From assembly GCF_044647545.1 (NCBI RefSeq), contig NZ_CP172818.1: a DNA stretch of 64,000 bases. One strand, 5' to 3'. Shown piece after piece: positions 59,666-59,755 of the stretch. This stretch comes from Escherichia coli. GTDB taxonomy: Bacteria; Pseudomonadota; Gammaproteobacteria; Enterobacterales; Enterobacteriaceae. Under the pieces are notes generated by a model, which was not told the DNA's origin, did no database searches, and saw only the letters and a program-made list of their open reading frames with translations. Every line of letters starts with the position of its first letter. Within the stretch, counting starts at the first letter, position 1. Both the position numbers and the translations under genes were made by a program.

Positions 59666-59680
59666 AACGAAATTAAAACC

Positions 59681-59753
59681 CTTGTACCGTTAAGGTACAA
59701 GTATCTTGAAGGTTCATTTCAATCATGTAATATGTACACCGGAGGTACATATT
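59681..59753. promoter_or_regulatory. cohE/croE divergent switch region with two palindromic operator candidates
   Basis: cttgtacc-gttaa-ggtacaag (59681-59701, perfect 8-bp arms) and aatatgtac-accggag-gtacatatt (59729-59753, perfect 9-bp arms; spacer carries the croE SD ggagg). Confidence 0.6.
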
Positions 59754-59755
59754 GT

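Follow-up and report, generated by a model that had tools for sequence, protein, structure and literature searches.

In phages lambda, 434 and P22 the repressor and Cro share operators. The closest described counterparts of the immunity region considered here are those of Shigella phages SfV and SfIV, which carry the same module as the e14 prophage of Escherichia coli K-12. Their cI products are 98.9-100% identical to the e14 repressor CohE, with complete identity in SfIV, Ayreon, 2H10 and PhiR29/49 and 98.9% in SfV and the cdtI and Stx2c phages; the Cro protein matches e14 CroE at 65 of 66 residues. The gap between the two divergent genes differs from that of e14 by 1 nt in SfIV and by a few in SfV. 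SfV and SfIV are complete, plaque-forming and UV-inducible, SfIV having been isolated by UV induction, whereas the morphogenesis genes of e14 are truncated. The GenBank record of SfV (U82619.2) carries a ‘putative operator region’ at 26377-26445 that spans exactly the segment from IR2 to IR1, the two inverted repeats described below, and is the only evidence found that the operators had been described before. The same record places a putative rho-independent terminator, homologous to that of cohE, after cI, and leaves the sites on the leftward promoter unannotated.

The window is a 64-kb (64,000 nucleotide) stretch of E. coli DNA, and its switch region matches e14 in the MG1655 record. The switch region is base-for-base identical in the two, and over the 2.2 kb from 58400 to 60600 the only differences from the MG1655 record NZ_CP032667.1 are one indel and one SNP. 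The former falls in ymfL, at about 60484, where 3 bp (ATG) present in NZ_CP032667.1 are absent from the window; the latter is in ymfM at 60595, with A in the window and G in NZ_CP032667.1. The features under discussion are listed in Table 1.

Table 1. Features of the e14 immunity region, in window coordinates unless residues are stated.
Feature	Position	Strand	Description
ymfJ	58508-58816	minus	gene of the leftward arm
OL2-like weak operator	58908-58924	unstranded	TGTTTCTCTTGGGTACA; 2 mismatches; covers the predicted +1 region of the leftward promoter
PL-like early leftward promoter	58924-58951	minus	TTGACA-16-CATAAT; 11/12 consensus matches; predicted to drive ymfJ...xisE-intE
OL1-like operator	58928-58944	unstranded	TGTATCTCAAAGGTACA; 1 mismatch; fills the -35/-10 spacer of the leftward promoter
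cohE intrinsic terminator	58960-58979	minus	GAACCTGCTTCGGCAGGTT + T7; conserved in relatives
cohE (ymfK)	58991-59665	minus	CI-like repressor, 224 aa
CohE domains	residues about 1-72 and 93-212		HTH and S24 autopeptidase, respectively; Ala100-Gly101, Ser138, Lys176
cohE maintenance promoter	59665-59677	minus	-10 TTTAAT (59677-59672), from spacing; start at A of the ATG (59665); leaderless mRNA
cohE-croE gap	59666-59755		90 bp; cohE start codon ends at 59665, croE starts at 59756
IR1	59681-59701	unstranded	CTTGTACC/gttaa/GGTACAAG; 8-nt arms, 100% complementary; 5-nt spacer; ends 5 bp short of the predicted PR -35
IR1 core	59683-59699		TGTACCGTTAAGGTACA; -18 to -34 of the cohE promoter
Predicted PR-like promoter for croE-ymfL-ymfM	59706-59733	plus	-35 TTGAAG (59706-59711), 16-nt spacer, -10 TAATAT (59728-59733); start predicted at about 59739-59741
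IR2	59729-59753	unstranded	AATATGTAC/accggag/GTACATATT; 9-nt perfect arms; 7-nt spacer
IR2 core	59733-59749		TGTACACCGGAGGTACA; overlaps the PR -10/+1
croE Shine-Dalgarno	59741-59745		GGAGG; inside IR2, 10 nt 5′ of the croE ATG
croE (ymfT)	59756-59956	plus	66-aa Cro-like HTH protein
ymfL	59988-60554	plus	CII-like regulator; RefSeq start is the GTG at 60000
ymfM	60551-60889	plus	SOS-inducible division inhibitor (SfiC); rightward early operon
DUF4222 ORF	60730-60909		59 aa, TTG start; different frame from ymfM

An earlier note on this DNA had described two perfect palindromes with GTAC cores in the gap, the second overlapping the ribosome-binding site of croE. Both repeats are where it placed them, their arms are fully complementary, every arm bears GTAC and the croE Shine-Dalgarno does lie within IR2. 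The term ‘perfect palindromes’ holds for the arms only. These are interrupted repeats, not palindromic through the centre, and their perfection is not a conserved property, many relatives with the same repressor having TGTAT in IR2; the left half-site of IR2 is TGTAT in SfV and TGTAC in e14. The arms of IR2 can be extended to 15 nt at 87% complementarity. GTAC occurs four times in the gap, compared with an expectation of 0.26 for a segment of 90 bp. IR1 and IR2 are copies of a single 17-bp motif, TGTAC-N7-GTACA, and the window holds two exact matches to it, both in the gap, where 0.05 would be expected; a count of two was reached in none of 100 shuffles. With arms of at least 8 nt and spacers of at most 10 nt, two or more perfect inverted repeats turn up in just 2 of the window's 2131 90-bp tiles, and shuffling the gap produces them in 0.04% of cases. 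The one other tile with two such repeats is at about 25651-25740.

Natural variation of the gap was mapped in 80 viral contigs, all encoding essentially the e14 N-terminal domain of the repressor and so offering no diversity of lineage, which gave 35 distinct versions. Rare singletons apart, the TGTACC and GGTACA of IR1, the GGTACA of IR2 and the hexamers TTGAAG and TAATAT are fixed. Variation is seen at the centres of the operators, in the spacer of the promoter and at the outer bases of each palindrome, and the left half-site of IR2 is polymorphic, with TGTAT replacing TGTAC in about half of the variants. Beyond this set, relatives of the first 88 residues of CohE occur in Hafnia phage yong2 (73% identity), Edwardsiella phage EPP-1 (62%) and many Pseudomonas phages (59%), and more distantly in a Vibrio phage (55%) and Ralstonia phages (41%). 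This domain is common, with 492 relatives in viral contigs, from phages of Escherichia to those of Pseudomonas and Ralstonia. The repressor-Cro gaps of yong2, EPP-1 and Pseudomonas phage CF3a each contain two core sites 50-51 bp apart, one of the EPP-1 cores having one mismatch; the half-sites are kept, the centres are unrelated and the croE-proximal site includes GGAGGTACA, an element of IR2 kept in all lineages. In the Vibrio phage a single core site is accompanied by a looser GTAC pair 60 bp off. Each relative locus carries 1-4 core sites, allowing at most one mismatch, per about 3.2 kb, where about 0.1 would be expected. Hennie, a Ralstonia phage whose 41% identical protein has no S24 domain and which is the most distant relative examined, is without a clean motif. 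Judged by these alignments, what is conserved is the 17-bp core and not the perfect palindromes, and the pattern fits a protein-binding site, not an RNA stem. Could the repeats be no more than chance palindromes in AT-rich intergenic DNA? Short arms are all that can be said for this idea, and the motif and tile statistics, with conservation across genera at fixed positions, leave it a negligible probability; the comparative data already refute it.

In the mapping of Romero et al. (2014, Table S3) the ymfK transcript has no leader (TSS RVS_(I)-1202156, leader length 0); near the gap, in uninduced cells, they list no TSS for croE and none for leftward transcription. With the cohE start thus mapped, the spacing implies that TTTAAT is the -10 hexamer and sets the core of IR1 just upstream of it. 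The sequence ATTAAA, the same hexamer read on the plus strand, is invariant in the 35 variants apart from rare singletons, and the TTTAAT-N6-ATG geometry also occurs in yong2. These observations bear on the possibility that IR1 is an intrinsic terminator or RNA hairpin of the minus strand. A scanner does flag CTTGTACCTTAACGGTACAAG followed by GGTTTTAATT as terminator-like on that strand, but the cohE transcript starts downstream, so IR1 is not part of that RNA. The supposed T-run is the -10 of the cohE promoter, and relatives keep only the GTACC/GGTAC core, the outer stem being variable and the T-run absent. The position of the cohE start together with the unconserved stem and T-run rules a terminator out, and we regard an RNA role for IR1 as exceedingly improbable.

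On the other side of the gap, a promoter scan with a threshold of 9/12 consensus matches passes nothing in the 90 bp. The croE promoter, with 8/12, is below that threshold and was assigned by manual reading and conservation. Its hexamers are near-invariant, with a varying spacer, in the 35 variants, and a -35 of the form CTTG(A/C)(A/C/G)GG is found at the corresponding place in EPP-1, CF3a and the Vibrio phage. The locus presents divergent repressor and cro genes with an operator-bearing gap between them, in which sites of one consensus overlap both divergent promoters, that of cohE with a mapped start and that of croE with a predicted one. The centres of IR1 and IR2 are at -26 and -76 relative to the cohE start, and neither is a standard activator position. 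Three adjacent operators with self-activation from OR2, an arrangement specific to lambda, are not seen, there being only two sites 50 bp apart; the missing third operator has no effect on membership of the broader lambdoid kind of switch. The restriction to two operators and the location of IR1 within the core of the cohE promoter make positive autoregulation in the manner of lambda unlikely, and the detailed logic may differ from that of lambda.

A second set of operators, overlooked in the earlier note and conserved in five lineages, lies on the early leftward promoter, and the layout is that of a lambda-type PL/OL beside the repressor gene. This strong promoter begins immediately past the intrinsic terminator that follows the cohE stop codon, and transcription is predicted to start at about 58917. 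Its hexamers and spacing are kept without any change in e14, SfIV, SfV, other E. coli prophages, Hafnia yong2 and Edwardsiella EPP-1. The OL2-like site, 20 bp from OL1, adjoins the downstream end of the -10. The position of OL1 is also occupied by a site in SfIV, SfV, yong2 and EPP-1, at the same offset downstream of cI, with conserved half-sites and a variable spacer. In EPP-1 a second site 20 bp further on (locus position 2242) takes the relative position of the weak e14 site; relatives retain the left half-site of the latter, TGTAC on the minus strand.

Homology to other E. coli prophages stops at the edge of this leftward promoter and operator region. Depending on the genome, the break is at 58841-58845 or at 58908, and it marks a mosaic boundary of the immunity module. 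In Pseudomonas phage vB_Pae_CF3a the segment downstream of the CohE-like repressor, at about 2320-2390, contains two CTGTATATACA(G/A) palindromes and no GTAC sites, which suggests that its leftward promoter is controlled by a different protein.

Which protein reads these sites? Cro homologues adjoin every related repressor and co-vary with the repressor domain in each lineage, so the comparison alone does not tell the two proteins apart. It might be argued that CroE alone, or else the CII-like YmfL, reads the GTAC sites and that CohE recognises a different sequence. Homologues of CroE do accompany the motif in every lineage and the croE operon is listed as a CroE target in Ishihama's table. 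However, the sites are also on the leftward promoter, which must be silent in a lysogen that makes only CohE; no other repeated motif was found when the gap was inspected; and the paradigm of lambda, 434 and P22 is of shared operators. We therefore think it very unlikely that CohE is not a reader of these sites.

The assignment of CohE as an S24-peptidase repressor, made in the earlier note, is well founded. The peptidase domain (Pfam PF00717) is matched over the full profile by residues 93-212, with an E value of 1.5e-26 and 92.8 bits against a cut-off of 23.3 bits, and PDB matches are to the C-terminal domains of lambda CI, UmuD and LexA. The catalytic residues of lambda CI are established, and each has its counterpart in CohE. 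The GDSM of CohE (Ser138) aligns on GNSM of lambda and FKRL (Lys176) on FKKL, which gives the catalytic dyad, and alignment of PVISWVQAGAW on PVFSHVQAGMF puts the scissile bond at Ala100-Gly101. The N-terminal domain matches no Pfam family even at E values up to 10. It is nevertheless recognisable as the helix-turn-helix expected of S24 repressors, from a phmmer match to SPC32H Rep (PDB 5d50; E=4.7e-4 over residues 1-75, 34-36% identity) and from its fold. The AlphaFold model (pLDDT 88) has SPC32H Rep as its best Foldseek match, with a TM score of 0.8, followed by the HTH domains of 434, P22 c2, lambda and HigA (probability 0.8-0.99). A search of the literature turned up neither binding experiments (footprint, EMSA or ChIP) nor a cleavage assay on CohE or CroE; one paper terms CohE ‘experimentally characterized’, citing only a bioinformatic study.

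Of the other regulators, CroE matches YdaS_toxin (E=1.5e-5) and HTH_3 (E=0.003), both under the Pfam cut-offs, and YmfL matches Phage_CP76, the CII family, with an E value of 8.6e-13. The SfIV paper states that these phages are without CII, though YmfL belongs to that family. A CII-dependent establishment promoter for cohE may exist.

The inducibility of the early genes, ymfM included, by way of RecA was put forward in the earlier note as an expectation and is already in print. ymfM is the division inhibitor SfiC, which is induced via recA441 and not repressed by LexA (Ansari et al.). In a time series published in 2024, ymfJ and ymfM rise together, late in the SOS response, with a log2 fold change of 1.3-1.4, 4.0 and then 4.8, and its authors attribute the late rise to slow cleavage of a CI-like repressor. 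By the Keio and TraDIS data the gene cohE is essential in K-12, and a repressor actively holding down toxic early genes should be. The terminase, portal and baseplate genes of e14 are truncated.

Induction could in principle proceed through a LexA-controlled antirepressor, or through LexA directly, with no part for self-cleavage of CohE. The nearest structure to the N-terminal domain is that of SPC32H Rep, which is controlled by an antirepressor, and older compilations list e14 genes as LexA-regulated. Set against this, the S24 domain of CohE is complete, Ala-Gly site, Ser and Lys included, SfiC is reported to be outside LexA repression and the late kinetics fit slow cleavage of the CI type. 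No LexA box with one core mismatch or fewer is present at either early promoter, and a scan of 58400-60100 returned a single core with one mismatch, at 58463 in the ymfI/ymfJ region. Direct membership of the LexA regulon is rejected on the absence of a box from both early promoters, and we assign only a small probability to induction by LexA or an antirepressor in place of CohE self-cleavage. The only perfect LexA-box core in the window (CTGT-N8-ACAG, within TTCTGTACCAGAAAACAGTT) is at 58313-58328, inside ymfI and not at a promoter. This core may be the reason for the older listing of e14 genes as LexA-regulated.

Taken together, IR1 and IR2 are very probably the repressor-binding sites of the e14 lysis/lysogeny switch. 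The explanation that best accommodates the data, and in which we have high confidence, is that they are the rightward operators of an e14 immunity switch that has leftward operators as well and is triggered by RecA through self-cleavage of CohE. What we infer within it comprises the assignment of proteins to sites, their relative affinities, the transcription starts for croE and for the leftward operon, and the cleavage of CohE. Half-sites 11 bp apart, about one helical turn, would suit a dimer of the CohE N-terminal HTH. In the lysogen, CohE dimers on IR2 and on the leftward sites would silence croE-ymfL-ymfM and ymfJ...xisE-intE. IR2 extends over the -10/+1 of the croE promoter and the Shine-Dalgarno, and a repressor bound there should block rightward early transcription. 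IR1 lies over the -35 and the spacer of the promoter for the leaderless cohE mRNA, a position that would allow negative autoregulation by CohE, shut-off of cohE by CroE, or both. Following DNA damage, activated RecA would stimulate CohE to cleave itself at Ala100-Gly101 by means of the Ser138/Lys176 dyad, and its DNA-binding and dimerising domains would come apart. The two early promoters would then fire, leading to excision (int/xis) and to filamentation (ymfM), despite the lack of intact morphogenesis genes. Operators on the leftward promoter would explain why int, xis and ymfJ are induced together with ymfM.

A separate observation concerns ymfM itself. The 112-residue product has no Pfam match, and the 3′ half of the gene overlaps an ORF in another frame that is a clear member of DUF4222 (Pfam E=1.4e-18) and is annotated by RefSeq instead of ymfM. 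The DUF4222 frame is intact in 81 loci, to about 60% identity, while the full-length YmfM frame occurs only in near-identical loci. Substitutions counted in 31 e14-like sequences give, within the overlap, synonymous to non-synonymous ratios of 13:4 in the DUF4222 frame and 4:14 in the ymfM frame; for ymfM before the overlap the ratio is 11:5. On these counts, constraint on YmfM looks to be confined to its first 59 residues or so, a segment for which Hafnia phage yong2 has a homologue of 59 aa at 38% identity. The overlap with the DUF4222 ORF goes unmentioned in the ymfM preprint, and published work apparently does not distinguish that ORF from ymfM as the source of the filamentation.

How much of this is new? 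The switch and its inducibility by DNA damage had already been recognised in e14 and in its fully functional relatives, SfV and SfIV, and the finding is correct and ordinary. SOS excision of e14 and filamentation by SfiC/YmfM have been known since the 1980s and the repressor was already annotated as SOS-sensitive, so that there is little significance beyond a tidier annotation. The additions are a precise consensus for the operators, the recognition of a leftward set of them and the position of IR1 on the leaderless promoter of cohE, whose start is mapped. They provide exact targets for mutagenesis aimed at uncoupling e14 from the SOS response in K-12 strains, and the repressor/operator pair might be reused as an orthogonal part responsive to DNA damage. 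A more speculative thought is that the CohE N-terminal domain may define a repressor family, extending from enterobacterial to Vibrio and Pseudomonas phages, that is not yet described as such; we hold this tentatively, and part or all of it may be in print. Such a family might possibly be characterized by the TGTAC-N7-GTACA grammar and a minimal, two-operator OR with sites spaced by about 50 bp, or by 60 bp in the Vibrio phage. Among its further traits could perhaps be counted, with the same reserve, a leaderless repressor mRNA with an operator in the core promoter and a cro Shine-Dalgarno within the half-site GGAGGTACA.

It remains to set the e14 switch beside the better known ones. The Rep repressor of Salmonella phage SPC32H is not known to carry an S24 domain and is subject to inactivation by an antirepressor. 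Among proteins of solved structure it is the nearest relative of the CohE DNA-binding domain, with sequence similarity limited to residues 1-76, and CohE differs from it in possessing the complete S24 domain. With LexA and the host SOS regulon, CohE would have in common the S24 self-cleavage chemistry and the signal from activated RecA. The operators are differently spaced, TGT-N11-ACA in e14 as opposed to CTGT-N8-ACAG for LexA, and the e14 early genes are induced later than LexA-controlled genes. The resemblance to lambda lies in the divergence of the repressor and cro genes, a single operator consensus represented on both of their promoters and again on a leftward promoter past the repressor gene, the leaderless repressor mRNA, the S24 repressor with its Ala-Gly bond and Ser/Lys pair, and a CII-like gene after cro. 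The differences are that e14 OR has two operators 50 bp apart where lambda has three at 23-24 bp, that the operator sequence is TGTAC-N7-GTACA, that the CohE N-terminal domain has no Pfam family and that no N antiterminator is evident in e14. In addition, IR1 is located in the core of the repressor promoter, with no obvious counterpart to the activation of PRM from OR2.
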